Of a DNA stretch of 64,000 bases, positions 6,360 through 53,000 are shown in pieces (the stretch's first letter is position 1; each line of letters opens with the position of its first letter). Under the pieces are notes generated by a model. That model was not told the origin of the DNA and made no database searches. It saw only the letters and a list, made by a program, of their open reading frames with translations. A program made the translations under genes and the position numbers. Source of the DNA: an uncultured virus (IMG/VR IMGVR_UViG_3300032456_000001) (lineage: Duplodnaviria; Heunggongvirae; Uroviricota; Caudoviricetes); IMG/VR virus record IMGVR_UViG_3300032456_000001; one strand, written 5' to 3'.

Positions 6360-6412
6360 GTTCGCTTCAGTTGAGTGGTTTTTGGTTTTAGTGTTTATTT
6401 TTGGTTCGATGT

Positions 6413-8419: not shown

Positions 8420-8436
8420 AATTTTGAAGTAGTTCA

Positions 8437-8738
8437 GTGGTTTATTTCTTGGCTATGTAAACTATCCTATAGGCTACCCGATAGTTTGTCAAGTGTTTTG
8501 GGAAAGTATTTTTTGGATACGGGTCAAACATATACACAGCAAAGCTTTTACTCAGCTAAGGGTAGGTGCAGTCAAAGTTCACGTACTTTACATATATCGC
8601 GGGCGCGATTCTATCTAAAACAACAAAATCGCATCCCACATCTATGCTGGGCCTTTCAGACAGCCAAAGTTCAGAATTCTCAATCCGTTCTTTTCACCAT
8701 GCCAGCGCTGCTTCTGATTGCTCTAACACCGAACACGG
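8437..8738. repeat. ~300-bp direct repeat, copy 1 (copy 2 at 9313-9617)
   Basis: Alignable by eye from agtggtttatttcttggctatgtaaac to ctctaacaccgaacacgg. Confidence 0.9.
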
Positions 8739-9312
8739 TACTGATATTATCTACATTCGTATTTAATACTACAGTCGTCTAAGATTCGAGCTACGGCTGA
8801 AGTGCCGAATCCTGCTGTAGAGAGAATCGCTTCAGACCGCTTGGCTCGAATTGCGCGTCGAATTGGGCGAAGCACTACTGCATATTCGTAAGAACCCGTA
8901 GAGATACCTTTCAATGCTTTTGCCAAAATCTTTGCGCTCTCAATATCTAGTGTCCATGTACTGTCTGTTTTGGAAGAGGTTAGAGTGACCATGTGTTTTT
9001 CTTTTTAGTTTGCTTGAAGTGGTTGACTTGAGGCTGAGTGTAGGCAGTTTTGCGACACTGCCTAAGTGGTTTAGTTCAGTGCAGAAAATAAATCAGGTTA
9101 GCGGAATCTTGGCAGATAAGACAATGCTAATATGTAGCTCAGTTGAGTCAAGCTTGTCCCACAAATTGGATCCGTGTTGCCATAAACGTTTGGGGCGTTG
9201 CAGTTTGCGACCCAATACTCACGCTTAGATAGAGTCCAGCAAGCTTTTGCCGCTTCTGTTTCAACTGTATTGCTTCCGTCATCATGGACAAATGTGATTT
9301 TCATGGTTTTGA

Positions 9313-9617
9313 AGTGGTTTATTTCTTGGCTATGTAAACTATCGTATAGGCTACCCGATAGTTTGTCAAGCGTTTTGGGAAAGTATTTTTTGGATACGGA
9401 TCAAACGTATACACAGCAAAGCTTTTACTCAGCTAAGGGTAGGGGCAGTCAAAGTTCACGTACTTTGCATATATCGCGGGCGCGATTCTATCTAAAACGG
9501 CAGCACGGCATCCCATACCCACGTCGGAGCCATCTCAGACAGCCAAAGTCCAGAATTCTCAATCCGTTCTTTCCACCAGCCAAGCGCCGCCTCTGATTGC
9601 TCTAACACCGAACACGG
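9313..9617. repeat. ~300-bp direct repeat, copy 2
   Basis: Matches 8437-8738; includes the 3' end of ORF 9492-10691 and a promoter. Confidence 0.9.
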
Positions 9618-11832: not shown

Positions 11833-12204
11833 TGATTTTTCCTTTTTGCTTTTTGAAGTGGTTAAAACATCAAACGCATTAACCTAATATAGATTAATAC
11901 GTTTGACTGTAGATGAAATTACGCTGCAACTGATTCAGAAACAATTACAAATTGACTGGTTGACTCAGGTCTGTACTCGTACAAACAGACTCGATTGAGC
12001 CTTGTATTGAAATCGAGAAAGTCTACGGATGTGCATTCTTCTTCGTTTACTGAAAGCGCGACCCTGGCGTTAGGGTTACATTGCTTGAGGTATTCTATTA
12101 GCTCTGTGACTAGCATTGGTTCTTTCCTTATTCAAAACTTTTTTTGACTTAGCTGTTAATATCTTAGCAAGATAAACAACATTTGTCAAGTCGTCGCTAA
12201 ACTG

Positions 12205-16514: not shown

Positions 16515-16686
16515 GGTTTGTTTTTGAAGTGGTTCGTTTTTTTGACTCTAAAACTATCATATAGGCTACCCAGTAATTTGTCAAGCGTTTTGGGAAAGTA
16601 CTTTTTGAGGAGTTCTGAAACGTATACTAGGCAACAACTAGAGTAGTGTGGGAGCGGATTACTTTGCGCTCCCTTTGATTGACTTG

Positions 16687-17960: not shown

Positions 17961-18563
17961 TTGCAAAGAAACTGTCACAAGGGCTTAAAAAGTATGTGGT
18001 GTAACGATTACACGGAAACTGGCACAAGGGGGTTGACAGATAGCGTGACGGTAGCGTATATTCGCGGGCGTGGGTGTGATTCAGTAAATATGCTGACCCA
18101 TCAAAATCGGGGCTTCCCAAAATCCGGTCAGCATGGTAGCCTAGATGAGCACGAAAACACGGAAATCAGTAAAATGTCACTTCAGCAAAAAGAATCCTCG
18201 CAGTCGCAAGAGTCAGGCGTAACCTTTACTCGCGACGCAAGGGGAAGGACTATGCAACAAACCATCGCCATAGTCTCAGCGGGTGCGGTCACGCTACCAG
18301 ACGGAACAATTTTTCAATTAGATTCAGAACAGGGTAGGGACTGGCTGCAATCGGTTCCATCTTTTCGGTTCGTGCCTTCTCTGGGGCATAAACCTTTCAC
18401 TGCCAGAAGACAGCCACAGAATGCTCTGTGGTATTGGTACGGCTGTCGAAAAATGGGTGGGAAAAGCCCTAAAAAGAAGTATATTGGAGTTAACACGCCG
18501 GAAGTAATAACAATCACCAGACTGGAAGAGGTTGCAAGGGAATTAACCGATTTGGAGCCTTAA
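17961..18563 (+). CDS. Hypothetical nucleic-acid-binding protein (true start probably later)
   Basis: FTARRQ...WYGCRKMGGKSPKKKYIG motif. Confidence 0.45.
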   Translation: MQRNCHKGLKSMWCNDYTETGTRGLTDSVTVAYIRGRGCDSVNMLTHQNRGFPKSGQHGSLDEHENTEISKMSLQQKESSQSQESGVTFTRDARGRTMQQTIAIVSAGAVTLPDGTIFQLDSEQGRDWLQSVPSFRFVPSLGHKPFTARRQPQNALWYWYGCRKMGGKSPKKKYIGVNTPEVITITRLEEVARELTDLEP

Positions 18564-19253
18564 TTAAAATTGTGAATTAAACTCTAAACTATCTTTTTTC
18601 TGAGTGACGGCGCTACCAAAATAATGTTTGAGCAATTCAGAGTCGTTAGTTTTTTTACCTTCTATATGCGCGTAAGTTTGAGCTTTCTTAAATCCAAAGC
18701 GCTCGTCAACAAATAAAGAACGATGAAAGTGTGCATTTAACCCTGACAGCCATATTTGATTCAAGTCTTCAGTGATGTTGTCGTTCCAAAATAGTTTCGA
18801 GCCTGAGCGCACTCCAAAGGCATAGCCATCAATACTTCCACTGCTGCGAAAAGGCTTTAATCCGTGGTAGCTGGCGGCAACACAATTAGCACTAAATCCG
18901 AATAAATATGTACCTAGTTGAGTTGCTATCTCGTCAGCATTGTGAATCAACTCTGTTACCTTTTCTGGCTCTACTTTCGTTGATTCACTCTTAATTCCAC
19001 ACAGCTTTAAACAATTGATAATATTGTCACTTATAAAAAAAACGTGATTAAACTTATCCAATATCCATTTATTCCGAGTAGCGAAAGTCTCAACACTGTC
19101 AGGATATCCAATGATTTCTACGTTTGAATTATATCTTTGGTAGTCACTAACTTGAGATTCTGGAACGCACAAAGTTCCACCTTCAACTAGCTTGTGAACG
19201 ATAACGCTCGACGCTTTGTTTTTACTGGGAATAATGATTTTAAGGCTCATCAA
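18564..19253 (-). CDS. GT-A fold TAGT/GREB1-like glycosyltransferase, possibly degenerate
   Basis: IIIPSKNKA, LCVPESQVSDY, RNKWILD; the expected DDD motif reads SDN. Confidence 0.6.
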   Translation of the reverse strand: MMSLKIIIPSKNKASSVIVHKLVEGGTLCVPESQVSDYQRYNSNVEIIGYPDSVETFATRNKWILDKFNHVFFISDNIINCLKLCGIKSESTKVEPEKVTELIHNADEIATQLGTYLFGFSANCVAASYHGLKPFRSSGSIDGYAFGVRSGSKLFWNDNITEDLNQIWLSGLNAHFHRSLFVDERFGFKKAQTYAHIEGKKTNDSELLKHYFGSAVTQKKDSLEFNSQF

Positions 19254-34953: not shown

Positions 34954-36337
34954 TTGACATCCTCCCTACTGATGAATCAGGGGGATTCCAATCTACCCAA
35001 ACAACGAAAGCTGTCTAGGGAACTGGTGGGTTGACGCTTCACTGGAAGATGCCACATTAACTGCGGTCTTACTCCGTCCTCCACGTCCGTTTATAGTCTC
35101 AGGCAATCCGCCCGCGACTTTTATATTAATCGCTGCATTCTCATCTCGGTCGTGAACCGCCCCACAAAACAAGCAAGTCCATTCGCGAACTGAAAGCTCT
35201 TTCTTTCCACCAATTTGTCCACAACAAGAGCATCGTTGGCTAGTTGGTTCCCAGCGACTGATAACTCTAAAGTCTCTGCCGTACATTTCTGATTTGGCTT
35301 CCAGTATTGTCCGAAAACTTCGCCAGCCCAAATCAGAAATAGCACGGGATAACTTACGGTTTTTTATCATACCGGAAACGTTGAGGTCTTCTAGGATTAT
35401 CGCTTGGTTCTCACGAATAATCCTGGTACTCAATTTGTGCAAGAAATCGTTACGGATATCGGAGATTTTGGCGTGAATTTTTGCAACCTTCCGACGCGCT
35501 AATTCTCTCCGCTTGCTTCCTTTTTTCTTTCTAGCTAACTTGCGTTGTGCCTTGTGAAGCTTCCTTAGATTCTTTTTGAGAGGCTTGGGAGCCTTCACTT
35601 TCTCGCCTGTACTCATGGTTGCGAAATCAGTTATACCGAGGTCTATACCAACTGATTGCCCGTTGTCGGGTAGTTTCGTCGGAGCGACTTCAACTACAAA
35701 GCTGATAAAGTATCGGTTCGCAGCATCTTTAATTACCGTGACCGAGCTTGGCGGGGATGGCAACTCTCTTGACCAGACGACTTTGAGTTTTCCAATTTTA
35801 GCAAGATAGATTTTCCCATGTTTAATAGAGAAGCCTCCGATTCTGAATCGTGCCGACTGTCTGCTGTTACGCTTTTTGAACTTGGGACGACTAATTCTCC
35901 GACCTTTTCGCGTACTTTTTAGCGAGTCAAAGTAGTTCTTCCAAGCTACTCCTAAATCAGCAATTGATTGCTGAAGGGGAATGTTTGAAACTTCCGCTAG
36001 CCATTCCCGTTCTTCCGACTTCTTGGCTTGAGTAATGAATGTTTTTTGTAAATCTCCATTACTGGGTAGTTTCTCGGATGAATTGCACGATGCTAGCGAA
36101 TCGTTCCATACAACACGACAGCATCCAAACAATTTAGCAAGACTATAAACTTGCGGAGAAGTTGGATATATGCGGTACTTATATCGTTGTTTCATAGAAC
36201 TATTTTAACAGTAAAAAAAACCATTAATACAAATAGATATTAAGAATACGACTCATTTGAAGAAACAAAAGAAGGCGGTTGAAACCGCTGCCGACTTTTC
36301 CCGTGTTTAAAGCCAGGGGCTTGCGTCTCGCACTTCG
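34954..36337 (-). mobile_element. IS200/IS605-family non-autonomous (tnpB-only) element
   Basis: Left end follows TTGAC (36342-36338) with a subterminal hairpin; right end hairpin ends TCAA at 34954; no tnpA. Confidence 0.85.
34993..36195 (-). CDS. tnpB: RNA-guided endonuclease TnpB
   Basis: YKYRIYPT, GIDLG, ILEDLNV, CSCC/CLFC, HDRDENAAINI. Confidence 0.96.
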   Translation of the reverse strand: MKQRYKYRIYPTSPQVYSLAKLFGCCRVVWNDSLASCNSSEKLPSNGDLQKTFITQAKKSEEREWLAEVSNIPLQQSIADLGVAWKNYFDSLKSTRKGRRISRPKFKKRNSRQSARFRIGGFSIKHGKIYLAKIGKLKVVWSRELPSPPSSVTVIKDAANRYFISFVVEVAPTKLPDNGQSVGIDLGITDFATMSTGEKVKAPKPLKKNLRKLHKAQRKLARKKKGSKRRELARRKVAKIHAKISDIRNDFLHKLSTRIIRENQAIILEDLNVSGMIKNRKLSRAISDLGWRSFRTILEAKSEMYGRDFRVISRWEPTSQRCSCCGQIGGKKELSVREWTCLFCGAVHDRDENAAINIKVAGGLPETINGRGGRSKTAVNVASSSEASTHQFPRQLSLFG

Positions 36338-36499
36338 GTCAATACCGCAAACGGTCGCTTCTACTAACTTAGCTTCTGTAACCGTACCTGTGAATTGCTC
36401 GGTCTTTGTTGTGGTTTTCGTGGCTTGCATGGTTTTAGTGTGTGGTAATTTGAAGTGGTTAGAATTGAACGGGGCTAATTAAGCCCCGATTGCTATTAG

Positions 36500-39012: not shown

Positions 39013-39681
39013 CTAATCATCATTCCGTTCACCATAGTAGTCTTCATCAAAAATTGTCCTATCTTGCGCTCGTGCAATGTACGCCCGTCGTGCATCGTGT
39101 GCCAGTATCGCGTCCCGTGCTTTGTCTTCCTCTGTATCAACGCTCAATTCCCCAAAGTCTAGGACTAACGAATAAGTGCCTTCCACGGTCTTCTTTTTTG
39201 ACTTTTTGGGTGCATTCTTCTTGTCCTCAGCACGTTTTTCGGCTAGCAATTTCTTTTGTGCCTGTAACTGTGCTACTAATTCCGCTCTTTCTTGAGCTTC
39301 CCTTTCTTGTTTCTGTATCAACTTCCAATATTCACCGACTGAGGTTTTGCGAGTGCGTTCTATTGCTGGAGTATTGACAAAGCAGTCATCGCACCAAGCG
39401 TCAAGTTGTTTTGGCGGGATACTTTGATACAGCTTGGAGAAAACTCCACATTTGCTACACCGTTTAATTTGTACTTTGCTGACTAGCTGCAACTGCCAGT
39501 TAATTTCTTCGATATCTCCAGGTTGTGGTGAGTCGCTACTAGATAGTTGCAACTGCTGGTTAATCTCAATTTCGGATTGCGGTGAGTCGCTATTAGGGAG
39601 TAATTGCACGATATTATTGAAGGAAGTGGCAAATATCATCATTATAGACGATACTGTTAATCTTGTCAAGATATTCGACAC
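39013..39681 (-). CDS. Hypothetical protein with internal repeat and CxxC motifs
   Basis: SDSPQ..IEIN.QLQL twice; CSKC, CDDC. Confidence 0.45.
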   Translation of the reverse strand: MSNILTRLTVSSIMMIFATSFNNIVQLLPNSDSPQSEIEINQQLQLSSSDSPQPGDIEEINWQLQLVSKVQIKRCSKCGVFSKLYQSIPPKQLDAWCDDCFVNTPAIERTRKTSVGEYWKLIQKQEREAQERAELVAQLQAQKKLLAEKRAEDKKNAPKKSKKKTVEGTYSLVLDFGELSVDTEEDKARDAILAHDARRAYIARAQDRTIFDEDYYGERNDD

Positions 39682-39822: not shown

Positions 39823-40416
39823 ATGGAATCCATACTGGTAAGTATCGAAAAGATTAGACCGTATCATGCTAACGCTAGACTGCACCCACCAGAACAGATA
39901 GAAAAAATCATTCGCTCTATCGGACTGACCGGATTTGACCAACCAATTGTCACAGACAAATCGTTCGTTATTGTTAAAGGACACGGGCGACTGCTAGCTG
40001 CACAAAAGATGGGGTTAACGAAAGTTCCAGTCATCATTTTGGACGTCTCCAAAGATGTTGCGGACAAAGCTCGACTTATTGACAACAAATCCAGTGAATC
40101 GAGTTACGACTTAGAAGTTTTACTGGCAGAAATTAACAGGTTTGAAGACGAGATATTTGACACCGGGTACAACCCCGACGAATTTAAGGAATTACTAAAT
40201 CAGCTAGAAGCAGATACGGCTATAGCTGACTACGACTGGAACAGCTTAGATGACGCGGAGAAAGAGGAAGACAATGAAGACAATGAAGAGGCAACAATCA
40301 CGTTAAAATTTGAAATCCCCGCGAACAAAAAAAGCCTTGTTTTAGGCTTTCTTGGCGTGAAGTCTACTAAACCCAATCTACTCGGCAATGCGTTGTCAAA
40401 ACTATGCGAAAACTAA
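39823..40416 (+). CDS. ParB/Srx-like protein of the DNA-modification module
   Basis: NARLHP, GFDQPIV, GHGRLLAA, LIDNK. Confidence 0.85.
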   Translation: MESILVSIEKIRPYHANARLHPPEQIEKIIRSIGLTGFDQPIVTDKSFVIVKGHGRLLAAQKMGLTKVPVIILDVSKDVADKARLIDNKSSESSYDLEVLLAEINRFEDEIFDTGYNPDEFKELLNQLEADTAIADYDWNSLDDAEKEEDNEDNEEATITLKFEIPANKKSLVLGFLGVKSTKPNLLGNALSKLCEN

Positions 40417-41018
40417 GAGTTCAAGAGATTATCCCTTTAACGGTACAGGGCGAAGGTTTCAACGCAGGTATGCCGTGCAGCTTTGTCCGACTGTTCGGCT
40501 GTCCTGTTGGTTGTTACTTCTGTGACACGGGTTACTCGGCAAACGAGAAGAAGCCGCCAGTTTACCATGAAATGACTACTGATGAAATCAAAACGGAATT
40601 GCTAAGCGATAATGTCGTTGTTACTGGTGGCGAGCCGTTTGTTAATTTAAATTTTGCGTACTTATTACTCGAACTGTTTGACAAGCGAGTTAGTATCGAA
40701 ACTTCTGGGATTAAATTCAGCGATACCTTGACAAATGAGTGGGTAACTCTATCTCCGAAAGAGCATTTAAACAAGGACGCACTAATTGACAGGCGACTTG
40801 CTCAAAGAGCGAATGAATTAAAATTAATAATATCGAAGGAGTCTGATTTTGACTACTATTCAAGCCTAGTTCAACACTTCAAAGAGCAAAGCAAGCCTGT
40901 CTATATTCAGCCTGAATGGGGTATCATGAGTCAGAGCCTTGAGATGTTGATAGGGCTAGCCAATGAAAACGAGGTCAAGCTGTCACTACAAACGCATAAA
41001 TTAATAGGAGTGAGATAA
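40404..41018 (+). CDS. queE: 7-carboxy-7-deazaguanine synthase
   Basis: TVQGEG, FVRLFGCPVGCYFCDT, TGGEP, IETSG, LSPK, SLQTHK. Confidence 0.93.
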   Translation: MRKLRVQEIIPLTVQGEGFNAGMPCSFVRLFGCPVGCYFCDTGYSANEKKPPVYHEMTTDEIKTELLSDNVVVTGGEPFVNLNFAYLLLELFDKRVSIETSGIKFSDTLTNEWVTLSPKEHLNKDALIDRRLAQRANELKLIISKESDFDYYSSLVQHFKEQSKPVYIQPEWGIMSQSLEMLIGLANENEVKLSLQTHKLIGVR

Positions 41019-41063
41019 TCAAAAAGTCGCTTAACAAGTTAAGTAATTACAGGATATAATAGA

Positions 41064-41468
41064 ATGCCTTGGACGATTAGCAAAACTTTCACTTTTGAAG
41101 CTGCACATCAACTGCCTTACCATGATGGGAAATGTCAGCGATTACACGGACATAGTTGGCAGTGTAGCCTCTACCTCGGCAGCAGTCAGTTAATCGAGAC
41201 AGGTAGTAAGCGCCAAATGGTCATGGACTATAGCGATGTCAAGGCTGCATTCAAACCAATACTTGACGACTATTTAGACCATCACTACCTCAATGACACT
41301 TTAGGGCTTGAGTCTCCAACCAGCGAAGCCATTTCTCGCTGGATATATGACCGCGTTAAACCCATTCTTCCCGATTTACTAGGAGTCAAGATTAATGAAA
41401 CCTGCACTTCAAGCTGTTACTACTCACCCGAACCAGAGTCAAGTCCTACTAGAAGCTTTGTTGATTAA
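41064..41468 (+). CDS. queD: 6-carboxytetrahydropterin synthase
   Basis: FEAAHQL, CQRLHGHSW, LDHHYLND, PTSE. Confidence 0.95.
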   Translation: MPWTISKTFTFEAAHQLPYHDGKCQRLHGHSWQCSLYLGSSQLIETGSKRQMVMDYSDVKAAFKPILDDYLDHHYLNDTLGLESPTSEAISRWIYDRVKPILPDLLGVKINETCTSSCYYSPEPESSPTRSFVD

Positions 41469-41961
41469 CTTCTGGAAGGGAAAGGTTGAGCCAGATACCG
41501 CGCGAAGAATCTTAGGATACTGGAAAGAATTCAACTCGAACGACAGTGACGTGGGAGACTTGTTCAAGTCGTTTGAGTGTGACAATGACCAGTTGGTAGT
41601 AGTCCGAGATATCAATTATCAAAGTATGTGTGAACATCACCTACTCCCTTTCTACGGAAAGGTACACATCGGTTACATCCCAACCGGTCGCGTACTGGGG
41701 CTTAGTAAGTTCGGGCGAATCGTAACCCACTTTGCGAAAAATCCACAGCTTCAAGAGCGACTTACTCAGCAAATTGGTACAGCCATTATGGATAACCTGT
41801 CTCCGCTAGGAGTTATCGTAGTGACGGAGGGTGTTCACACCTGCATGATTGCGCGAGGCATTCTGAAGCAAGATTCCAGCACTAGAACAAGCTTTATTTC
41901 CGGCGTATTTAAGAGCGATGCGAGTGCAAGACAGGAAGCTCTGAATTTGATTCTTCACTAA
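41395..41961 (+). CDS. folE: GTP cyclohydrolase I
   Basis: SMCEHHLLPFYG, GLSKFGR, QLQERLT, HTCMIARG. Confidence 0.95.
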   Translation: MKPALQAVTTHPNQSQVLLEALLINFWKGKVEPDTARRILGYWKEFNSNDSDVGDLFKSFECDNDQLVVVRDINYQSMCEHHLLPFYGKVHIGYIPTGRVLGLSKFGRIVTHFAKNPQLQERLTQQIGTAIMDNLSPLGVIVVTEGVHTCMIARGILKQDSSTRTSFISGVFKSDASARQEALNLILH

Positions 41962-41976
41962 ACAAGGAACTAAGTC

Positions 41977-42666
41977 ATGTCGAAGGCATTAATAGTATTA
42001 TCCGGTGGTCAAGATTCAACGACGTGCGCGGTCATCGCTAAACAGCAATTTGATGAAGTTTTTGCCGTCACGTTTAACTATGGACAAAAGCATTTAACCG
42101 AGGTGCAGTCGGCTATAAAAATAGCAGATTTCTTGTCGATTCCATTAGAAATTATCGACTTAGGTTCTTCCATCTTGAAAGGGAGTTCTCCGCTAATAAG
42201 TAGCAGCGCACTTGGGCTTTACGACAGTCCAGAAGAATTGCCATCGGGAGTAGAGCCGACTTTTATTAGCGGTCGTAATACCTTGTTCTTGACCGTAGCA
42301 GCTAATCGAGCTGATTGCTTGGGAATTACAGATATTTTTACGGGTGTATGCCAAGCAGACTTTGCGGGTTATTGGGATTGTAGGCAAGTCTTTATTGACA
42401 AGATACAAACCGCGTTGAATGAGGGTTTTTACGGAGAGGAAAAGTTTAAAATCCATACGCCGCTAATGGATTTAACCAAAGCAGAATCAGTACAACTCGC
42501 TCACGAAATATTAGGCGCGGAAAAGTTTAACGAGCTTTTCTCCCTAACTCATACCTGTTATGCCGGACAAAAAGGCGGCTGCGGAAAGTGCCACGCTTGC
42601 ATCTTACGGGATAAAGGGTTCACGGAGGCAGGGATTGCCGACCCTATCTGGCAGTTCAGAAAATAA
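41977..42666 (+). CDS. queC: 7-cyano-7-deazaguanine (preQ0) synthase
   Basis: LSGGQDSTTC, FNYGQKH, RNTLFL, YWDCR, TCY..CGKCHAC. Confidence 0.95.
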   Translation: MSKALIVLSGGQDSTTCAVIAKQQFDEVFAVTFNYGQKHLTEVQSAIKIADFLSIPLEIIDLGSSILKGSSPLISSSALGLYDSPEELPSGVEPTFISGRNTLFLTVAANRADCLGITDIFTGVCQADFAGYWDCRQVFIDKIQTALNEGFYGEEKFKIHTPLMDLTKAESVQLAHEILGAEKFNELFSLTHTCYAGQKGGCGKCHACILRDKGFTEAGIADPIWQFRK

Positions 42667-42685
42667 ATAGGAGTAGGTTGATAGT

Positions 42686-43882
42686 ATGTTGATTTACTTT
42701 GCGGGTGCAGTCTAGGGACAAACGCATCCATAAGGAAATTTATGGCTCTGGATTAGTTTTAAATCATTTATCGACCTATGCAGACTTGCCCGAAGTAACG
42801 GCAAAAATATCTTCAATGTTTCTACACTTGACGGACACAACTGCAAGAATACAAGGGAACTTAAGTTGCAAAGCTTAATGGGAGAACAAAGTTATGCAAA
42901 TTCTCTCTATAGCTTCGCCTATCCCAATCAAAGAGAACAATGGGAAGAGTATTATAGTATGTTGATTCATCTTGCCGATGCCACTCCAGAGAGAGGGCAG
43001 TATCAATCGTTGGTGGATGTGAAATTTCCCTGCCACTTAATGAGCTTCGCTTACCGGAATCAAGCTTTTGAAGGGTTTACAAAGACTTGGAATATGTTAA
43101 TTCATCTTGCTAGACATTCTGCTACTAAAGCCACAGAACAAGTGAAAATTAATCATCAATCTCACCTGACAACTTTTGCAGACAAGCAAGAGATATCGAA
43201 CTTGTTCGACACCTGCGTCAACGACAGATTACTACCAAGAATACTCATAGATTCTGGCGCTTTTACTGCTTACACGACGGGCAAAGTGATTACTGTAAAA
43301 GAGTATGGAACATGGGCGCTAGAGTTCAAGAAACAGTGGGAGTGCAAAGTAAAGAGTTTACGCTTCTTCAACTTGGATGTAATCGGTTCTCAAGAAAAGT
43401 CCGATATCAACCTACACAGATTAGAGCAAATGGGTTTAGAACCTATTCCAATCTTCACTTATGATGCGGATATCAAACACTTAATTTACTACTTAGAAAA
43501 CTACGAATATATAGGCTTTGGAGGGCTGGTAGGCAGAAGCCCCGCGGTCGTTATGAAATGGTTGGATTATTGTTACAAACAAGTCAATAATCACTACAAG
43601 AAAACAGGGACTTTAAGAAAGACCCACTTGCTAGGAATTACAAAACAACAAATACTAGAGCGTTATCCGTTATATAGCTGTGACAGTAGCGGATGGGTTG
43701 CCTGCTTGCGGTTTGGTCGTGGTAAAGCAATAGGAAAGTCAAAGATTCCAAGATATAACGAGTCACCAGAAGCGCTGAAGATTACGATAGTAACGCTAAG
43801 AGCCGAGATTGAGAAGTACAAGAAGTTGCAAGACGACGTTACGAAGTTATGGGCAAAGAGAGGGGTTGTGTGGGACGAGTAG
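42686..43882 (+). CDS. TGT-fold DpdA-like deazaguanine insertase with tandem N-terminal cassettes (continuous frame 42866-43882; first two cassettes frameshifted)
   Basis: ILIDSGAF, NLDVIG, PIPIF, IGFGGLV, HLLG, SCDSSGW; last gene of the preQ0 operon. Confidence 0.75.
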
Positions 43883-44076
43883 TTTCAATCCAAAACAAAA
43901 GAGCGAGATTGTTCCCACTCTTTTGCCCTACCAGATAATTATCCTGTTTGGGTTTCCCCGCATCTTTCGATTTTTCAGGATTGCTGTCTTACGACTAGCT
44001 TCAAGCTGCTTTCGCTACACTCGCTTTCTTGAGTCAAAGCTCACAGGTAATGGGGTGAAAGCTCCCTACCTTTATA
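43882..44076 (-). ncRNA. Putative tracr/omega-like guide scaffold RNA
   Basis: Minus-strand promoter TTTACA(44110-44105)-N17-TATCTT(44087-44082); several hairpins; internal CAATCCTGA anti-repeat; ends GGATTGAAAC, the last 10 nt of the CRISPR repeat. Confidence 0.6.
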
Positions 44077-44134
44077 TTGCTAAGATAACATGATATACTG
44101 AGCTTGTAAAGCCCTTCGCAAAAGATTTTCAATT

Positions 44135-45970
44135 ATGCTCACACTAGAATTTAAATGTTTTCCATCTCTCGAACAGAAAGAAAAAATAGAAAAGTGGTTG
44201 CAAATTTCTAAGTCTGTGTGGAATTGTGGATTGTCAGCCTTAGAAGATTTTGAAACAAATTATTACTACTACAAAGCTACAAACGGTTTAGACGGTAAAG
44301 AGAGTGGCGGGTACGCTCCATGCTGTCGATTACCTTGGAAGTATTGGAGTCACCTTGTAGATGAGGAAGGTGCAATCGTTTCAAAAGACAAGGGTAAGTC
44401 AATAATCCAAGCGCCCTACAGTGTCATTTACGATGATAAGTCTCATTGGTATATCCGAGAGTTGAAGCGGGTAAAGGTTCCGCAGCCAGCAGAGAAGAAA
44501 GAATCTTGGGGCTGGCAGAACTCAGAACATGGGTCGGTTACTGGTTACAGTTGCCCTTTGTCGGTTGACTTCACTGAAACGTTGATTTCTAAGCCTGGTT
44601 TGCAACAGGCGGGCGGGTTAGGTCAAGTCATCAAAGGGGACAACCTAACAGCACACCGCGAATTTATGACAGAAATGCCGTACAAGTTTCGCTCTGGGGC
44701 TCTTGCTGGATTAGATACTAGCTGGCAAGAGTACACAAAGTCAAGAGCCGGGGTTCAGAACGGTGCAAAGAAGGGGCGACCTCGGTTTAAACGCAGACGT
44801 GACAAGGTTGCAACCCTGGTTCACAACAACCCAAAAGGTGTCATCGTTCCCAAGGTAAACTCTCAATCTCTAATAGGTATACCAGGTCTTCGTGAATTGC
44901 GACTAAAAGGACTAGCACGTCGGTGGAAAAATCCAGACGGCACAATTCCAGAAATTGCCGCCTTCAAAATATGCCAATACGCTTCAGGCTTCTATGTTCA
45001 ATTAACGGGCGAGTTGGTTCGGGGGCGACGCATCAAACAAACAACTAAGTCGATAGGAATCGACCCTGGACTAGACAGCTTTATCAGTTTAAGCAACGGC
45101 AAGCAGTACGGAAATCCGCGTTACTACCGGAACGCTCAAATTAAATTAGCGGAGCTTCAGAAAGAACTAGCTAACAAAATGACTCACCGACTGATTCTCT
45201 GGTTAAATCATCCTGAACGGCGACACAAAGACATCAAAGCTCTTATTAATTGCTCACCTGACAAAGCCAAAAAACTTTGTGAAATCAAAAGTGAATCTGA
45301 AGGTGTTGCCCTAATCGGAGGGATGTACTGGCAAAAGTTAAAGTGGAACTGTCAAGCACCTTCAAGTGAACAGAAAAAGATTCAGAATCGGATTGGCAAA
45401 CTACACGAGAAGATTAAACGTCAACGCAAGGGATTCAACCAAAAGCTTAGCTCTGAGATTGTAACCAACTATCAATTTATTTCCTGTGAAAACGGGCTGC
45501 AATCACAAAATCTTCGAGCACAAGCTAAGCCACAAGAAGATACAGAGAAAGGTGGCTACAAGAAAAACCGGAAAGCTCAAAAAACTGGGTTAGCAAAGTC
45601 GTTATCTGACGCGGGACACGGCGATTTCATTGCACAACTAGAACAGAAATCTGCACGTGACGGACGTACTTTTTTGAGAAATCCGGCTGCCTACACTTCG
45701 CAAACTTGCCCAGTCTGCCTAAACAAGATGGCGTCAATGAGTGACCCTAAAATTAAATTGTATGAATGTACCTGCGGCTGGAAGTGTCACCGTGATATCA
45801 ATGCGGCGGTCAACGATGAACTAGCACTGTTCACAGGATTGGTAGCAACAAAGAAAGCGAAAAAATGGGGCGAATTAAGCCTTGAACTTCTACAGAAGGA
45901 AGTTTCAATTGGTTTGTCTAAGTGGGCGTTACAGGCAAAAACAAAAAGGATAGATTTATTATCCCGGTGA
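44135..45970 (+). CDS. Enlarged TnpB-like / compact type V (Cas12-like) RuvC effector, 611 aa
   Basis: TnpB-like N-terminus (LEFKCFPSLEQ...VWN), GRPRFK, RuvC-I GIDPG, RuvC-II ISCEN, Zn finger CPVC/CTCG, RuvC-III HRDINAAVN; CRISPR repeats begin 9 bp after the stop. Confidence 0.85.
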   Translation: MLTLEFKCFPSLEQKEKIEKWLQISKSVWNCGLSALEDFETNYYYYKATNGLDGKESGGYAPCCRLPWKYWSHLVDEEGAIVSKDKGKSIIQAPYSVIYDDKSHWYIRELKRVKVPQPAEKKESWGWQNSEHGSVTGYSCPLSVDFTETLISKPGLQQAGGLGQVIKGDNLTAHREFMTEMPYKFRSGALAGLDTSWQEYTKSRAGVQNGAKKGRPRFKRRRDKVATLVHNNPKGVIVPKVNSQSLIGIPGLRELRLKGLARRWKNPDGTIPEIAAFKICQYASGFYVQLTGELVRGRRIKQTTKSIGIDPGLDSFISLSNGKQYGNPRYYRNAQIKLAELQKELANKMTHRLILWLNHPERRHKDIKALINCSPDKAKKLCEIKSESEGVALIGGMYWQKLKWNCQAPSSEQKKIQNRIGKLHEKIKRQRKGFNQKLSSEIVTNYQFISCENGLQSQNLRAQAKPQEDTEKGGYKKNRKAQKTGLAKSLSDAGHGDFIAQLEQKSARDGRTFLRNPAAYTSQTCPVCLNKMASMSDPKIKLYECTCGWKCHRDINAAVNDELALFTGLVATKKAKKWGELSLELLQKEVSIGLSKWALQAKTKRIDLLSR

Positions 45971-46012
45971 AATCTTTCGTTTTAATTCCTAGTAGGGATT
46001 GGAGATTATTGC

Positions 46013-46837
46013 GTTTCAATCCCTAGTGGGGGTTTAGGTTGATTGCGACCTTTCTGTTGGTGTTAACAAAAAGGTAGTTAGAATGTTTCAATCCCTGATA
46101 GGGGTTTAGGTTGATTGCGACGTTAATGTCGAAGAAGGCCGCGACCGAGTTCGTTTCGTTTCAATCCCTGATAAGGGGTTTAGGTTGATTGCGACGATTG
46201 AGGGATGCTGAGGTATTGTTCGCGTTTTGTTTCAATCCCTGATAGGGGTTTAGGTTGATTGCGACCCGGCTTAGGGCCTGACTGGTCGCGTAAGTAACCG
46301 TTTCAATCCCTGATAGGGGTTTAGGTTGATTGCGACCGCAGAAAGCTAAGTCCACAGCAGCTTTACTCTTGCCGTTTCAATCCCTGATAGGGGTTTGGGT
46401 TGATTGCGACCCGACAGGTTTCCGCTCATCACCAAAAACTACTGTTTCAATCCCTGATAGGGGTTTAGGTTGATTGCGACGCTGGCAAGGTGAGGTAAGT
46501 GTTCTGAAACAGATGTTTCAATCCCTGATAGGGGTTTAGGTTGATTGCGACGCAAGGAAGTTAGCGAGAATTCGGCAGAGTTCGCAGTTTCAATCCCTGA
46601 TAGGGGTTTAGGTTGATTGTGACTTACCGGGCATTGGAGCATCGGAGAGCACGGAGAAGTTTCAATCCCTGATAGGGGTTTAGGTTGATTGCGACGGCAG
46701 AAAACTGGAATGGGTGAGTACAACTGGGAGGTTTCAATCCCTGATAGGGGTTTAGGTTGATTGCGACGCAATCCGGGATATGCAGCCAAGAAAAATATCA
46801 GTTTCAATCCCTAGTAGGAATTTAGCTTGATTGCGAC
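46013..46837 (-). CRISPR. CRISPR array: 12 repeats (37 bp, GTCGCAATCAACCTAAACCCCTATCAGGGATTGAAAC on minus strand), 11 spacers of 33-37 bp, plus a degenerate repeat at 45979-46013
   Basis: Repeat starts on + at 46013, 46085, 46158, 46229, 46300, 46374, 46444, 46515, 46587, 46659, 46731, 46801; all spacers differ. Confidence 0.98.
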
Positions 46838-46993
46838 CGCCGACGTGTGAAATCGTTGGTGTATCTAGTTTTCAAGGTTGCGTTGCGTCAAACCGACTCC
46901 CGCAATTGCAAAAGTGTTATGGAAAGATTGAATATTATTTAGTTTTCGTGGTTCGGTTAAGTCCATTGTAATCGAAGATGCGAATCCTGTCAA
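46838..46993 (-). promoter_or_regulatory. CRISPR leader and promoter
   Basis: Minus strand TTGACA(46993-46988)-N17-TACAAT(46970-46965); leader contains ACCTTGAAAAC, as recalled from cyanobacterial leaders. Confidence 0.75.
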
Positions 46994-47007
46994 CCCAATT
47001 TTCTAAT

Positions 47008-47107
47008 AAAAAAACCCGCTTTCGCAGGCTTGAGATGAAAACCACTTCAAATGAAAACACACTAAAACCGCTACTCACTGCACGCAATTGCCGTAAACGT
47101 ATCGATT
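47008..47107 (-). ncRNA. Putative ~100-nt trans-acting sRNA
   Basis: TTGACG(47142-47137)-N17-TATTAT(47119-47114) promoter, GAAA-loop terminator with U run, no ORF, central segment complementary to early-gene leaders. Confidence 0.6.
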
Positions 47108-47147
47108 GATTTAATAATAGCAGGTTAATAAGAATACGTCAAGTATC

Positions 47148-47175
47148 AAAAAAACCCGGTGTGACTGCCGGGTTG
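47148..47175 (-). terminator. Intrinsic terminator after the BRO gene
   Basis: aacccggcagtcacaccgggttttttt on minus strand. Confidence 0.7.
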
Positions 47176-47205
47176 GTGGGTAAGATTTGAGCGTATTAAT
47201 TGCAT

Positions 47206-47544
47206 TTAATCAAGCCACTCAAGGGAATAACTGTTAGTTCTGAATACAACCGGAAAGACCACAAGTATCGCCCACTTGCGGAACTCTTTAGCCTCTGGTT
47301 TTTCATTTGAGGAAACTAAGACAAGCATTCCAGACTCTGAAATTACCGACATATCTTGATTGCCTTCAAGGGTGTCCACAGAAGCAATACTTTTCTTGCC
47401 TTCATCTAAAAGGCTCAATGCTTGACTAACATTTTCAAGACCTAAAATGACACAAACGTCATTAGCCACAAACCAAGGCAGTCCTTCAATAGTAACTACT
47501 CGAACTTGTTGAGTATTAAAGTCAAACTCTGTTAGATCAGTCAT
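47206..47544 (-). CDS. BRO-N domain (antirepressor-like) protein
   Basis: VRVVTIEGLPWFVANDVC, ISESGM, KPEAKEFRKW. Confidence 0.9.
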   Translation of the reverse strand: MTDLTEFDFNTQQVRVVTIEGLPWFVANDVCVILGLENVSQALSLLDEGKKSIASVDTLEGNQDMSVISESGMLVLVSSNEKPEAKEFRKWAILVVFPVVFRTNSYSLEWLD

Positions 47545-47590
47545 AGATGTTGTACTTCTTTTATTAAAAGTAAAAATAGAGTTCTACAAT

Positions 47591-47935
47591 TTACTCTAAA
47601 TTTAACTTGTTTTTCATCCTCGCCAATTTACCGTCAACCAAAGCTTCTTGGTTGTCAATCCATCCCCGCGCCTCGATTCTTGACTCTTCCGTATTAAAAC
47701 AGTAATCACCCTTAGATAACAAGATGTCACCGAAATATATTGAGTAACTACACGTGTAGTATTCGCTTCTCATTGCATTAACCTTAATAGTACACAGTTT
47801 GTATTGAGACACAGAAACTTCGTTTGTTGCGTTACAAAGAGACAGGCGACCTCTTCTCTTGAGGTTTTCAATTGCAGCGTTATTCACAGCCGCAAGTATA
47901 ACTGTTGGTAATGACCGAAACATTTTAGATAACAT
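47591..47935 (-). CDS. Hypothetical protein
   Basis: 114-aa ATG ORF. Confidence 0.4.
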   Translation of the reverse strand: MLSKMFRSLPTVILAAVNNAAIENLKRRGRLSLCNATNEVSVSQYKLCTIKVNAMRSEYYTCSYSIYFGDILLSKGDYCFNTEESRIEARGWIDNQEALVDGKLARMKNKLNLE

Positions 47936-48148
47936 AGATTTAAATTGACCTTCACTAGGGGTTAATGTCTTTGAATCTGCGGTTTTGTGCTATCCAGTAA
48001 TCTAACGCTACTGGCACATTGTTGGGCATCGGCGGTATTGAATTATATTGGCAAGAGATTCACCCATGCCAAGTAGTTAATTACATTACTTGGCAAGACA
48101 AGCTCACAGCCGGAACAGAGAGAGAGAGAAGATATGCACATTCCTATT

Positions 48149-49198
48149 TCAAGAAATGCAATCTATGTCCGCAATTAGTGGAAATAGTTCTTTTTTTATT
48201 GCGTGAAGTTGCTTTAAGTCCACTTCATTTAAAAAATGAAATAAAGCAGTCTGACAGTATTGAATAATAAGAGTCTGAGTCTTGACAGACCATACTCGCC
48301 CCCCTTTTGAATCTCTGTCTGCTCGTAAATCAGAGAGTTTGCCATTGAATAACACGGCGGCATTGTCTATATTGCCTCGCTCCACTCTCTTGTTTTTCAC
48401 GCAAGCACAGAATTCTTTCAGCCTGTCTCTTTCTTCAGTGCGACAATAATAAGCTTTAGCAATCACCGCTAAGACACCTCCCATATTCCAGATCCCATTA
48501 CCTGCTAGATTGTTAACAGCAAACTCTAGCCCGTTCCTGTATTTGCCAAGAAAGATAACTAGGTCTTCTGTTGCAGTCTTTTTGGGATGATAGACACGAG
48601 CATCGCTAAGCTTGGCTTGCATAAAAGCAGCCGCTGACGTATGCTTAGAGTCTACCCAAGTTAAGCCATACATTCTTGAAACGTCCACGGTAGTACGTTT
48701 ACGACCTCGGTCAATATTTGTCGAGACAGTATCTGGAAGCCCTATTATCACAACAAAACGCTGAGAGGATTTGGCTCTCACTACCGCACTAAGCCTGTGC
48801 TGTCCATCAATCAAATAACCCGTATTTGAGAAAATTAATGGAGCCGAAAGACCCCATCGGCCTTCTTTCATCAGCTTAGAGTAATCCAAGATGAATCCTT
48901 CACCCACTGGTCGATTATTTTCCATGTTTAGGGATAATAATTCTTCAGCTAGTTTTGGAGAGATTTCAGCAATAAATAATTCAACTCCGTCAAAATAGTC
49001 AGCCCCAGTATCAGTCTCGGCTTCTTGAATCAAAGCTCTAGTTCGCTCAAAACTGACTTCTTTGCCTGTATTTAGGTCTTCGTCCGAAAACAGGTCGGGG
49101 AATGCGTCTTCCAGGCTTGATTCTCCATTATTGGCAAGTCTTTTAGGCTCGTCGTCTTCACCCCAAACAAAGCTAGTTGCCGACTCGATATTTTTCAT
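48149..49198 (-). CDS. ParB-like N-terminal domain protein
   Basis: ISPKLAEELL, NNRPV, LIDGQHRLSAV, IDRGRKR. Confidence 0.8.
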   Translation of the reverse strand: MKNIESATSFVWGEDDEPKRLANNGESSLEDAFPDLFSDEDLNTGKEVSFERTRALIQEAETDTGADYFDGVELFIAEISPKLAEELLSLNMENNRPVGEGFILDYSKLMKEGRWGLSAPLIFSNTGYLIDGQHRLSAVVRAKSSQRFVVIIGLPDTVSTNIDRGRKRTTVDVSRMYGLTWVDSKHTSAAAFMQAKLSDARVYHPKKTATEDLVIFLGKYRNGLEFAVNNLAGNGIWNMGGVLAVIAKAYYCRTEERDRLKEFCACVKNKRVERGNIDNAAVLFNGKLSDLRADRDSKGGRVWSVKTQTLIIQYCQTALFHFLNEVDLKQLHAIKKELFPLIADIDCIS

Positions 49199-49499
49199 GG
49201 TAGATTAGATTAGGTAAATTAACACCCACCCAAGAACATCTAAACTCTCTTGGGTGGTTTTTTCTATATTACACGATTACTTGGGTGATGACAAGCTTTT
49301 CTTGATTTATTTTAAGTTCGCTCGCTCGCTTTTTGCATCATGCGCTAGTGTTTGTCTAGTAATAAAATGATGTTTACGCTTTCTGTTTACGAATTTCATA
49401 AAGAGTCTTTTGTAATATTTGCAATCAAGCGGAATCCTTACAGCGTAACAGTTGCAGCAACAATTCACAAAACCTCACTTCAAGATAATGAACTATGCA

Positions 49500-49552
49500 A
49501 CACACTATTTGTTAACACTTTTGTTTACAGATTGTTTACAGATTGTTTACGG
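49500..49552. repeat. Tandem 10-bp repeats TTGTTTACAG upstream of the replicase
   Basis: ttgtttacag-attgtttacag-attgtttacgg, plus ttgttaacac. Confidence 0.6.
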
Positions 49553-50007
49553 TCACGTCTTACTTAAACCGTCTTGCACTCTACCGCAAACACGAGAAAG
49601 CAACATACTAAGTGTGTTACGAAGCTATTGAATAAAACCATATTTAATAGTAATTATTTACAGAGACTCTTGTATTTAATATAGAAACCTGATAAAATTA
49701 ACTTGTGTTGAGCAGTTGAACCGTGTCTTTGCCCGCAGCTAGCGCTTTGAGACTGCTCTCACATCAAAAAGCAACCCGCCCACAAACGAATTGCTTTTTG
49801 AGTTTATTTTTCCCGTACATCCTAACTTTGTTGAAGTCTTAACGGAACAAACAAAATTAGGGCTAGCCGTAAATCGGCATCTGTAACTTATATGATAGCT
49901 TATACTTTGCCTCTTGGCAACATCTTTCTCGAAAAACTTGAAACTTTTTTCTGTAGCTCTAGCTTAGCACAATATACCCAAGGTAATCAAGTAATTGGGG
50001 GTATATT

Positions 50008-53000
50008 GTGAGTAACAAAGTATCACTCGATTATCTTTTGTACAATGACCTGATAGTGAAATCAGGCATTGATGAGGATATTGCCCGTTTGAATTTCCTT
50101 GCCTCACAAGGCCTTGCGACCTACGGACTCCTCTACAGCGAAACAGATAAAACGACTAATAGCGATAGCAGCGGTGGCAGCAGTGTAGAGGTGGCCCGCA
50201 ATCTTGCTCGGTGTACTGGGAGTGCTGGGTATACGCTAGGCAACAAATTTTATCTACCCGCAGATTTAGCCGGAGATACCAAAGCAGCCAGATTTGGGAT
50301 TATCAAAGCAAAAGGTATTTACTGGTCTGCGGGTCAACCTGCGAGGGGATGGACTTGCAATGGCCGGTTTAAACAACTTGATGGGATACCGCTTGGCTAC
50401 AAGCAAAAAAAAGAACGCAAAGGATTTGGCTTGGAGCCCCGGACATACTTCCAGCCTAAAGGGGAGCCATTAGAAATCTTCTTTCCTTTAGTAAATGAAA
50501 GTATTGGGAAACTGATACTAGCCAAGGCTAATTTGCCTGTACCAGAATTTCCTGTAATTGGGTTACGGGGAGAATGGATTGATTTTTGGGATTTGATACT
50601 TAATAATCATTGCCCAATTGTAATTACTGAAGGTGAAAAGAAAGCAGCAGCGGTAATCAGTCGCGGGTATGCAGCAATCGGATTACCAGGAATAAACACC
50701 GGGTACAAAGTTACCGAACGCGGCGAGAGCGTCACAAAAGCTGATGGAACACAATATCAAAGAGCAACTGCACGAGAACTCCACGAATCACTCAAACCGT
50801 TTGACACAGAAGGTCGTGCAATAACAGTTCTCTTCGACTACCGAACTGGGGATTATTCACAAAGTTCAGAATTCAAAGCGTCCAGCACTTTAAGCAAATT
50901 ATTCAAAAGTGCAATTGTTAAAGTTGCACTTTTGCCAGGCCCGGACAAAGGTGCTGATGATTTTGTAGTTGGGGGCGGTAATCTTGCCAAGGTAATTACT
51001 GACGCTCAAGATTGCCGAAAGCTGGAAATAAAAGCACAGTGGCGGCGCTATAGGAATTACATTCCCGATTGCATAATCAACTCCCGATTCTTTCATGCAC
51101 CCGCACCAGCCTCCGGCACAATTACAGCCGTTAAAAGCGGTCTAGCAACGGGGAAGACTCAATGGCTCAAAGATATCATTGCCAGCAATCCAGAAGGCAG
51201 AATCATTGTTTTGGGGAGTCGGAATGGGCTGTTACTCCAGACAGCCGAAAAATGCGAGTTTTACCACCTTGATGCTCACAATGGGTATTTGATGTTTCGC
51301 GACCCTAACGCCCGCCTATGCCTGTGCTTTGATTCGCTGCTCAAACTTCCTCCTGATATTTTTGAAGGCGCGACAATCATTTTGGATGAAACCGAAAGCG
51401 TTATCAGGCACTTACTAATGTCCCCGACTCTGAAGCACAATAGGGAAGCGATTAAACAACTATTCGCTCAAGCTTGTCTAGATGCTAGCCGAATAATCTT
51501 GCTGGATGGGCATCTAACAGATTACACAGTTAGTGTGATTGCAAAGCTCGCGGGCAACAAGCCAATCACAAAATACCTGAACGAATACAAAGGGAATTGC
51601 CCGAAAATTAGCGTTTACCAAACTGAAAAGGCAACTGCGACAGCAGCCGAAAAACAGGACTTTATTAATAGAATCCTAGCCTCGGATTGCCCAGTAATTG
51701 CCACAGATTGCTCTGTAGCCGAATCAGAAGCCCTTGCCTTGAGCCTAACCGAGGTAAAAGGTAAAGGCCTTTTAGTATGCTCAAAAAACTCAAATGACCC
51801 TGAAGAAACTGCCTTACAAACCAACCCCGATGCCCATCTTGAAAAAGAAATCCTGAACTGGTTTGCGTATACCCCTACACTTGAGAACGGGCTTGATATT
51901 AGCACGTCTGGAAAGTTTTCGGATGTATTCGGATTGTTCTGCGGGAATCTGGGGATTAATTCACTAATCCAGATGTTACGGCGTGTAAGGCATCCTATCA
52001 ATCAAATCTCGGTTCTTTGCCCTCAAATTGGGCTTAGCAGCAGTGACGATAAAAAGTCGTATTACGATAATCAAATCAGGCATCAAATAGAAGCTACTAT
52101 TTCTATTGAAAGCACGTTGCTATGCCCATCAGAGTATGAAGAAGCTGTCAGGGCTGACATTCTCCGGCAATTGGATGACCCGCTATTTTACGCCTATTGT
52201 CACTACAAAGCTCAGGAGAATTTAGAGAAATCCAATCTAAGAGAATTCTTGATAGAAGCCTTGATAGACGGCGGATACGAGGTTAATGAGCCGATATTGA
52301 ATGAAGATGAATCCGGCGACCATGCTAACAAAAAAACTGCCTGCAAGGAGCAAGAATCACAGGAAATATTCGACTCTCCTGATATCGCGCTAGAGGAAGC
52401 TCAAGAAATATCTCGCAGAAACAAAGCAAGGTGGCCCGAAAGATGCCAAGCTGAAAAAGCGTTTCTCAAAGCAAGATTGCCAGCAATTGAAAATACAGAA
52501 CTGTGGAAATGGGAATTTGTACACAGAATTCGAGGTAAGGATAGTTCCCTATTATCTCAATTAGAGAATTCTTGGCTATTCCACAATCCAGAGGATGCTG
52601 AATACTTGCAGAAATCTAAATGGGAATCGGGCGGGCTTGAATCCTTCCTACCTGACCACAGCACCCGCTGGCTGAAACTCCAAGCACTTCGCGAACTCAA
52701 CATAATACAATTCCTAAATCCTGCTGACGCTTCTTGGACTAATAAATCAATAGAAATTAAAAAGCTCTTGAAAGGTGGAGAGCGCAAAGGCATTCGGAAA
52801 ATACTGGGGGAGCCGGGCAAGGACGGCATCAAGTACCTTAATAAATTGTTGGGGCTGATAGGAATAAAGTTGGTGTCCAGACGGACGCGGGGAGGAGATG
52901 GGAAACGGGGATATGAGTATTTCTACCAGCCGGAGGTAACGTGGAAGGAAAGCAAAACCGGTCTGACCCGTATATGCTCCTTGGCTGAAAATTGGCACGA

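Follow-up and report, generated by a model that had tools for sequence, protein, structure and literature searches.

A predicted small RNA in a tailed cyanophage genome is complementary to a sequence tag in the leaders of several phage genes

Results and Discussion

The genome and the locus

The window, by which we mean the whole stretch of 64,000 nucleotides that was analysed (IMG/VR record IMGVR_UViG_3300032456_000001), is the genome of a tailed cyanophage with a G+C content of 42.7%. It codes for a large terminase, portal, scaffold, major head protein, tail protein and endolysin together with a sigma factor, and also for a primase/helicase-like protein of 1120 aa and a C-5 DNA methylase. 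The likeness of its CRISPR array to one on a Nostoc plasmid makes a filamentous cyanobacterium the probable host. The relatives in IMG/VR form a mosaic phage family, in which common segments are 86-98% identical and 55-80% of the window is covered. They are labelled G002, G003, G004, G005 (a fragment) and G006, with WIN standing for the window itself; G006 has a mean identity of 93.6% to the window genome-wide. Public records of phages and plasmids yielded no relative for the locus described below, the sole likeness being to the CRISPR repeats of the Nostoc plasmid array. A 7-deazaguanine DNA-modification cluster (Table 1) has no DNA similarity in G004 or in the G005 fragment, and G002 has no long match to the window there.

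Reading along the minus strand, a Bro-N gene (47544-47206) is followed by its terminator (47174-47153), the promoter P1, about 100 nt of non-coding sequence, an intrinsic terminator and a second promoter, P2. The minus strand of 47008-47107 reads GCGGTTTTAGTGTGTTTTCATTTGAAGTGGTTTTCATC and contains the string quoted in an earlier annotation made from the letters alone (the sequence-only reading). No ORF of at least 60 aa is found on the minus strand within the unit; the only frames that run over it are short, one of 50 aa from a TTG on the minus strand (46935-47087) that extends beyond the terminator and one of 43 aa from an ATG on the plus strand (46978-47109). Of 19 promoter matches of the strength of P1 across the window, 16 fall in the 16% that is non-coding, so that matches of this strength are mostly real promoters here. 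The sequence-only reading had described a stand-alone minus-strand unit of promoter, about 100 nt and terminator, and this description holds: a near-consensus sigma-70 promoter with a TG element and an intrinsic terminator delimit 47142-47005, where a stand-alone transcription unit is very likely. We think it probable that the unit is a real RNA gene.

Table 1. Positions of the predicted RNA unit, of the leaders complementary to it and of other elements of the window
Feature	Position	Strand	Remarks
Promoter P1 of the sRNA	47114..47142	-	Sigma-70; TTGACG, 17-nt spacer, TG, TATTAT; 10/12 consensus matches
Predicted sRNA, ~100 nt	47005..47107	-	Start placed from the -10 box, end from the terminator
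5' stem-loop domain of sRNA	47066..47107	-	15 predicted pairs, RNAalifold consensus
Seed block 2, GGUUUUAGUGUGU	47057..47069	-	Complement of the 13 nt abutting the ATG of gene 36430
Seed block 1, UUUGAAGUGGUUUU	47038..47052	-	Complement of leader tag AACCACUUCAA
Intrinsic terminator of sRNA	47005..47031	-	8-bp stem, GAAA loop, T7; stem-loop 47031-47012
Promoter P2 facing CRISPR array	46993-46965	-	TTGACA-17-TACAAT; 12 nt past sRNA terminator
Main predicted target, leader of gene 36430	36431..36460	-	Two 13-nt blocks, 4-nt loop between, ends at ATG
Exact matches in leader 36430	36448-36460, 36431-36443	-	13 nt each
Leader tag, 13 nt	9308..9320	-	4 nt before ATG of ORF 9098-9304
Leader tag, 12 nt	16523..16534	-	9 nt before ATG of ORF 15813-16514
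Leader tag, 12 nt	11852..11863	-	20 nt before ATG of ORF 11350-11832
Leader tag, 11 nt	9014..9024	-	21 nt before ATG of ORF 8747-8992
One-mismatch leader tag	8424..8434	-	4 nt before ATG of ORF 7976-8419
Leader of ORF 5220-6359	6374..6394	-	Partial copies of both blocks, 11 nt (6384-6394) and 9 nt
Early-promoter family, n = 6	-35 boxes at 8492, 9369, 16584, 17816, 37242, 55799	-	TTGACA-17-TAnnnT
Hairpin upstream of gene 11832 tag	11864-11905	-	Paired changes, AACGTATTAA/TTAATGCGTT vs AACGCATCAA/TTGATGCGTT
IS200/IS605-type tnpB element, 400 aa	34993-36260 (34993-36195)	-	Cuts gene 36430 after ~codon 28
Promoter of 222-aa gene	39608-39669; in G005 4968-5026	- (window)	Perfect 12/12 sigma-70, TTGACA-17-TATAAT
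7-deazaguanine DNA-modification cluster	39823-43882	+	ParB-N protein, radical SAM QueE-like, PTPS, GTP cyclohydrolase I, QueC, TGT/DpdA-like 338 aa
Type V-U2 effector C2c8	44135-45970	+	611 aa; NF038192, 394.7 bits, cut-off 350
Degenerate repeat	45979-46012		Adjoins first array repeat without spacer
CRISPR array	46013-46837		12 repeats of 37 nt, directly after c2c8

The predicted RNA has a G/U-rich and largely open middle, with a predicted unpaired stretch of 35-42 nt, which carries the two seed blocks. Its fold is not unusually stable (z = -0.6) and the single-sequence folds of the variants disagree. Seed block 1 is mostly unpaired in the folds of G005 and G006, and its accessibility is only moderate in the fold of the window. 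The sequence-only reading had itself offered an alternative, in which the site is the leader of a dead plus-strand mini-ORF. This is weakened, because the ATG of the mini-ORF is ATA in G005 and because no plus-strand promoter-like site was found for it at the locus; in G006 the mini-ORF is kept with an in-frame AAC insertion.

Beyond P2 lies a CRISPR locus with a gene for the type V-U2 effector C2c8. The repeats of its array come nearest to the Rfam family CRISPR-DR5, on the minus strand and below the gathering score; the effector and the likely crRNA strand thus converge, as the repeats score on the minus strand and P2 points in from the far side. Sister arrays are present in G002 (18193-19059, 6 repeats), G004 (50804-52057, 18 repeats) and G006 (47465-50415, about 16 repeats) and have very few spacers in common, and the spacers of the four arrays have no match elsewhere in the five genomes compared. 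C2c8 is reduced to residues 1-169 in G002 and is absent in G004. Two candidate relations of the RNA to the repeats were examined. A tracrRNA was rejected, as its duplexes with the two repeat strands lie inside the range of shuffled sequences (84 and 220 of 300 shuffles were at least as good). For a repeat-derived 5' handle the likeness is marginal: a permissive alignment of the 5' domain with the repeat has 22 of 32 identities and two gaps (p ~0.05-0.12), the stringent alignment gave nothing and the repeat hairpin is lost.

A tag before the start codons of leftward genes

The sequence AACCACTTCAA occurs in the window in 6 exact copies, and in 9 when up to one mismatch is allowed, where 1.93 would be expected; none of 100 shuffles reached 9. 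Five of the exact copies are on the minus strand, 4, 9, 19, 20 and 21 nt before the ATG of ORFs of 68-233 aa, and the sole plus-strand copy, at 47040, is inside the sRNA unit. Counting the motif by strand and by distance to starts, as the sequence-only reading had proposed, therefore bears out both of its statements on the motif, namely that leftward genes carry the complement just upstream of the AUG and that the copy in the unit is the only one it noticed in the opposite orientation. Two copies with one mismatch, at 30590 and 54140, are not leaders and lie antisense inside coding sequence. The 7-mer AACCACT shows the same bias, with 14 of its 17 occurrences on the minus strand and 8 of these 14 located 8-25 nt before a start. 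For AACCACTTCA, the counts on the two strands are 1 and 5 in WIN, 1 and 2 in G002, 1 and 5 in G004 and 1 and 3 in G006, and in all four the lone-strand copy is that of the sRNA.

Common to the tagged leaders are a short distance to the ATG and a sequence rich in C and A that is almost devoid of G and has no Shine-Dalgarno run. The tag AACCACTTCAA itself contains no G, and five of the six tagged leaders are without a Shine-Dalgarno-like run. As the leaders are without a Shine-Dalgarno sequence, the tag may be a cyanobacterial translation enhancer. Weaker forms (AACCACT, ACCACTG and CCACTTCC) are found in further leaders, and the 8424 leader has a second partial tag, AACCACT, close by at 8436-8442. 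In the orthologous leaders of the relatives (genes 11832 and 16514) the tag is fixed while the bases immediately upstream differ.

The surroundings of the tag vary. The tagged leaders at 8424, 9309 and 16524 follow members of an early-promoter family, and three others follow hairpins. Upstream, the six members of this family have in common a AAAATACTTT..AAAAC element; they also have a GGTAGCCTATA box, in part within a palindrome, which overlaps with the -10 region. These elements look like an operator for some regulator. P1 is without the elements common to the family, and the sRNA may therefore be regulated differently. The hairpin upstream of the tag of gene 11832, with its paired changes, is probably a real terminator or processing hairpin. 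The 222-aa gene, which has a perfect sigma-70 promoter, carries a weak match to seed block 1 in its short leader, 9-12 nt from the start: GCCACTTCC in the window, ACCACTTCC in the two relatives G005 and G006. In G006 (83012-83110) about 295 bp between the two tag copies of window 9014-9319 are missing, which brings the promoter of gene 9304 in front of gene 8992 with AACCACTTCAA as the exact joint; the tag thus also serves as a breakpoint in deletions or in the exchange of modules.

Predicted targets

When the plus strand of the unit was scanned for exact matches to minus-strand DNA elsewhere in the window, all matches of at least 12 nt fell in 47039-47069 and met leaders. An 11-nt match within the Bro-N coding sequence (47300-47310) looks like chance. 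In all, 6-8 leftward early genes have a start region that complements the middle of the sRNA, and of these gene 36430 is matched in full by both seed blocks. This gene is a 68-aa stump in the window, where it is cut by the tnpB element, and an intact ORF of 249 aa in G002, G004 and G006, where the element is absent at the site. Nine homologues of the 249-aa protein were found, none of them named, with only a sub-threshold hint of an OB-fold; its distant homologues are 55-72% identical, and none of these is in IMG/VR. The leader of gene 36430 and the sRNA occur together in WIN, G002, G003, G004 and G006, 4-10 kb apart and with their motif copies on opposite strands. The other tagged genes belong to no recognisable family, nothing in Pfam, PHROGs or NCBIfam being above threshold.

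Duplex energies were calculated in two ways. With the seed alone, the leader of gene 36430 gives -37.2 kcal/mol and ten other leaders give -15 to -21, and most of these duplexes reach into the start codon or stop 0-3 nt short of it. In a free duplex model the leader of gene 36430 reaches -38.0 and that of gene 9304 -31.0, against a minimum of -30.1 among random windows; the leader of gene 16514, at -28.1, is beyond the first percentile of -26.0, and the other tagged leaders rank within the best few percent of the random windows. By free duplex energy, no more than 1-3 of the 104 start regions exceed the random-window background, and ten reach -23.7 or lower where about 5 would be expected.

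Conservation of the unit among relatives

The unit was found in five distinct IMG/VR contigs, in which the RNA has four sequence versions, and four further DNA runs from four studies contained only the same versions. A metagenome scan returned G004, G006 and one G006-like contig, and scans of genome contigs for the unit found nothing. Searches with 23-mer and 16-mer seed patterns recovered only close relatives (41 of the 44 16-mer matches are chance), a terminator pattern recovered the five true contigs and three unrelated ones, and patterns for the 5' domain gave no further copies.

The most telling arrangement is that of G005, where both the Bro-N side and the CRISPR, c2c8 and deazaguanine side are absent around the unit. 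Its homology to the window is limited to 4789-4928 of G005, beginning shortly ahead of the -35 box and extending to the T-run, and the promoter of a different gene begins 33 nt beyond it. Because G005 keeps the unit with both flanks different, the unit is a cassette of its own, and neither a piece of the CRISPR leader nor of the Bro-N operon.

Within the unit, the -35 box, the TG and -10 positions 1, 2 and 6 of P1 are without variation in the five contigs, and variation is confined to -10 position 4, the base that follows the -35 box and three sites in the spacer. The terminator stem-loop is identical in all five, followed by T7 in four and by T6 in G005. The core of seed block 1, GAAGTGGTTTT, does not vary in any of the five contigs, and seed block 2 is the same in all sRNA variants and in all copies of the leader of gene 36430. 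The linker between the two unchanged blocks carries indels and substitutions. In the 5' stem-loop all three substitutions are on unpaired columns and a 4-nt deletion in G006 takes only the tip, with no compensatory pair, the stem having been fitted to the same alignment by whose substitutions it is judged. This pattern of change fits an expressed RNA and is suggestive, falling short of proof because the events are few, none is compensatory and the stem was fitted to the alignment.

Overall, the unit is conserved no better than the non-coding flanks or the genome average: compared with the G006-like variant it has 6 substitutions and 2 indels in 103 nt, the adjoining CRISPR leader 6 in 155 nt. 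Compensatory changes between seed and target were not found among the four close RNA versions, in which the seed cores and the tags are constant. In G006 a C for A in the sRNA at the edge of block 1 and an extra T in the leader of gene 36430 reduce the pairing of block 1 from 13 to 8 contiguous bp, which is the opposite of compensation.

A possible mechanism and its alternatives

We infer that the unit is transcribed, that its RNA pairs with leaders in vivo and that repression is the direction of the effect, as well as when it would act. The reading we favour, and to which we would give about an even chance, is that of a GcvB-like anti-leader sRNA that regulates several leaders by pairing. The phage gene would give an RNA of about 100 nt made up of a 5' stem-loop, an open G/U-rich middle and a terminator hairpin. 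Its middle would pair with C/A-rich, Shine-Dalgarno-poor leaders at AACCACUUCAA, 4-21 nt before the AUG, and translation would fall because the pairing would cover a translational enhancer or the place where the ribosome lands. Gene 36430 would be one target of high affinity, held by two blocks of which the second abuts the AUG, and several targets of lower affinity would be held by block 1 alone. As to its use, the sequence-only reading had thought of lysogeny maintenance or of the early-to-late switch. The former is unsupported, as Pfam and PHROGs scans of the submitted ORFs (sets of 25, 37 and 53) gave no family annotated as integrase or repressor, two small HTH proteins being the exception; a role in the latter is speculation.

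It could be, though we find it rather unlikely, that the RNA is a dedicated antisense regulator of gene 36430 only, derived by inverted copying of its 30-nt leader, and that the 11-13-nt matches elsewhere are by-products of the common tag within that leader. The match of 13+4+13 nt abutting the ATG gives -37 to -38 kcal/mol where the next two leaders give -31 and -28 in the free model, with the seed alone it gives -37.2 where the others give -15 to -21, block 2, which matches this leader only in full, is as constant as block 1, and the sRNA and the leader occur together in four of the four lineages that cover both (WIN/G003, G002, G004 and G006). Yet WIN and G003, where the insertion element cuts the gene, and the G005 fragment, where the gene is absent, all retain the RNA. 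Moreover, 11-13 bp of perfect pairing no more than 25 nt from a start codon usually suffice for an sRNA to act. We regard it as improbable that the unit is a non-functional remnant, an inverted 'hairpin plus leader' fragment left by mosaic recombination whose promoter and terminator are fortuitous or act as insulators. In G005 the cassette is exact from promoter to terminator with both neighbours gone, the critical promoter positions are kept while neutral ones vary, and the changes avoid both seed blocks; against this must be set that the unit is conserved no better than its flanks, that its plus strand shows a layout of hairpin, about 10 nt and tag like that of the leader of gene 36430, and that tag copies act as recombination junctions, as where the promoter of gene 9304 meets gene 8992 in G006.

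Two further explanations would do without an antisense RNA of this kind, and both seem to us very improbable. If AACCACTTCAA were a site in the DNA bound by a phage or host protein, as an operator or roadblock, the copy at 47040 would be one more site in the other orientation. Such binding would also account for the conservation, and three of the six leader copies, at 8424 (with one mismatch), 9309 and 16524, are 21-29 bp downstream of the -10 box of an early promoter. The three other copies, however, follow hairpins with no promoter nearby, and the trait common to all is the distance of 4-21 nt to the ATG and not a distance to a promoter. The motif is also asymmetric and strictly on the coding strand, and block 2 and the bracketing by promoter and terminator would be left unexplained. 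The unit might instead belong to the phage CRISPR system, as a tracrRNA, a leader element or a solo crRNA-like guide for C2c8 against the phage's own leaders. An anti-repeat is lacking, the repeat duplex energies are within the shuffle range, the stringent repeat alignment is empty and the repeat hairpin is not kept, and the RNA persists in G002 with its truncated c2c8, in G004 without c2c8 and in the G005 fragment, which has no array either. What speaks for a CRISPR role is the position of the unit 12 nt upstream of the array leader promoter in four of the five contigs, an open part of 35-42 nt that is close to the length of a spacer, and a faint likeness between the 5' domain and the plus-strand repeat, equalled or exceeded by 50-122 of 1000 shuffles and by 85-138 of 1756 genome windows.

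Significance and comparison with known systems

If the multi-target reading is true, silencing of a class of early genes through a leader tag would be a new way to time a phage programme. The tag would gain a function, which bears on how cyanobacterial translation starts without Shine-Dalgarno pairing. What might well be new here, and our confidence in this is middling, is a phage regulatory antisense RNA that is trans-encoded, has several targets and acts on leaders without a Shine-Dalgarno sequence. Should the RNA not be made, the locus is merely a small curiosity of mosaic phage evolution.

To our knowledge, most phage antisense RNAs described to date regulate a single gene next to them. 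Antisense regulators of phages include the c4 RNA of P1/P7, the sar RNA of P22 and the CI RNA of P4. The c4 RNA is located in the ant operon, is processed out of the operon transcript under its own control and acts on one pair of sites. The cyanophage unit resembles this type in being a short phage RNA that would pair through two short blocks beside the ribosome-binding site of a phage gene, and in adjoining a Bro-N/Ant-like gene as c4 sits in the ant operon. It differs in having its own promoter and terminator, in lying 4-10 kb from its best target and in facing several dispersed leaders, and an immunity function is not evident for it.

Another phage-encoded, trans-acting base-pairing sRNA, PreS, is described for lambda, where it works in the lytic cycle (bioRxiv 10.1101/2024.10.31.621285). 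The cyanophage unit is predicted to give an RNA of this kind. According to the parts of that report used here, PreS acts on the host replication machinery, and not on early leaders of the phage itself.

On the side of the tag, the nearest described kind, judging by the sections of the source drawn on here, is the start-associated sequence (SAS) of cluster K mycobacteriophages, a short asymmetric tag that precedes the start codons of many non-structural genes by a few nt, in one orientation, and often stands before unrelated genes (PMC3203893). SAS are 13 bp long with an AGGAG Shine-Dalgarno core and number about 93 sites across six genomes; four K1 phages have each a single copy in the opposite orientation, and the authors leave open whether the tag is bound by a phage RNA or protein (PMC3203893). 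The cyanophage tag is likewise asymmetric, near starts and in one orientation, a likeness of kind with no sequence relation. It has 11 nt and 6-8 sites and is without AGGAG, and in the sections consulted no RNA gene is tied to SAS. We suggest, as a doubtful generalisation by analogy, that a lone inverted copy of a start-associated tag is a general signature of phage 'anti-leader' small RNAs. In many unrelated phages a class of early genes would bear a shared tag that promotes translation independent of a Shine-Dalgarno sequence, and one sRNA gene, arisen by inverted capture of a tagged leader, would switch the whole class off together. If this were true, the cyanophage would be a clean case and the single reverse SAS of the four K1 phages (PMC3203893) another, and an explanation would be offered for the start-associated sequences of mycobacteriophages.

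For the sRNA, the comparison that guides our reading is with the enterobacterial sRNA GcvB, whose G/U-rich R1 seed silences C/A-rich translational enhancers that contain ACA (PMC3879156). There is no sequence or Rfam relation: a cmscan of 43500-48500 on both strands at E up to 1 gave no match to C4 or GcvB, and its matches were CRISPR-DR families and one chance snoRNA only. The cyanophage RNA would also differ from GcvB, as described in the portion of that paper used here, in being encoded by the phage and aimed at the phage's own genes, and its target leaders are mostly without a Shine-Dalgarno sequence and carry a tag that is a putative enhancer only. The likeness lies in the design, in which one sRNA sets an open G/U-rich stretch against C/A-rich elements upstream of many start codons.
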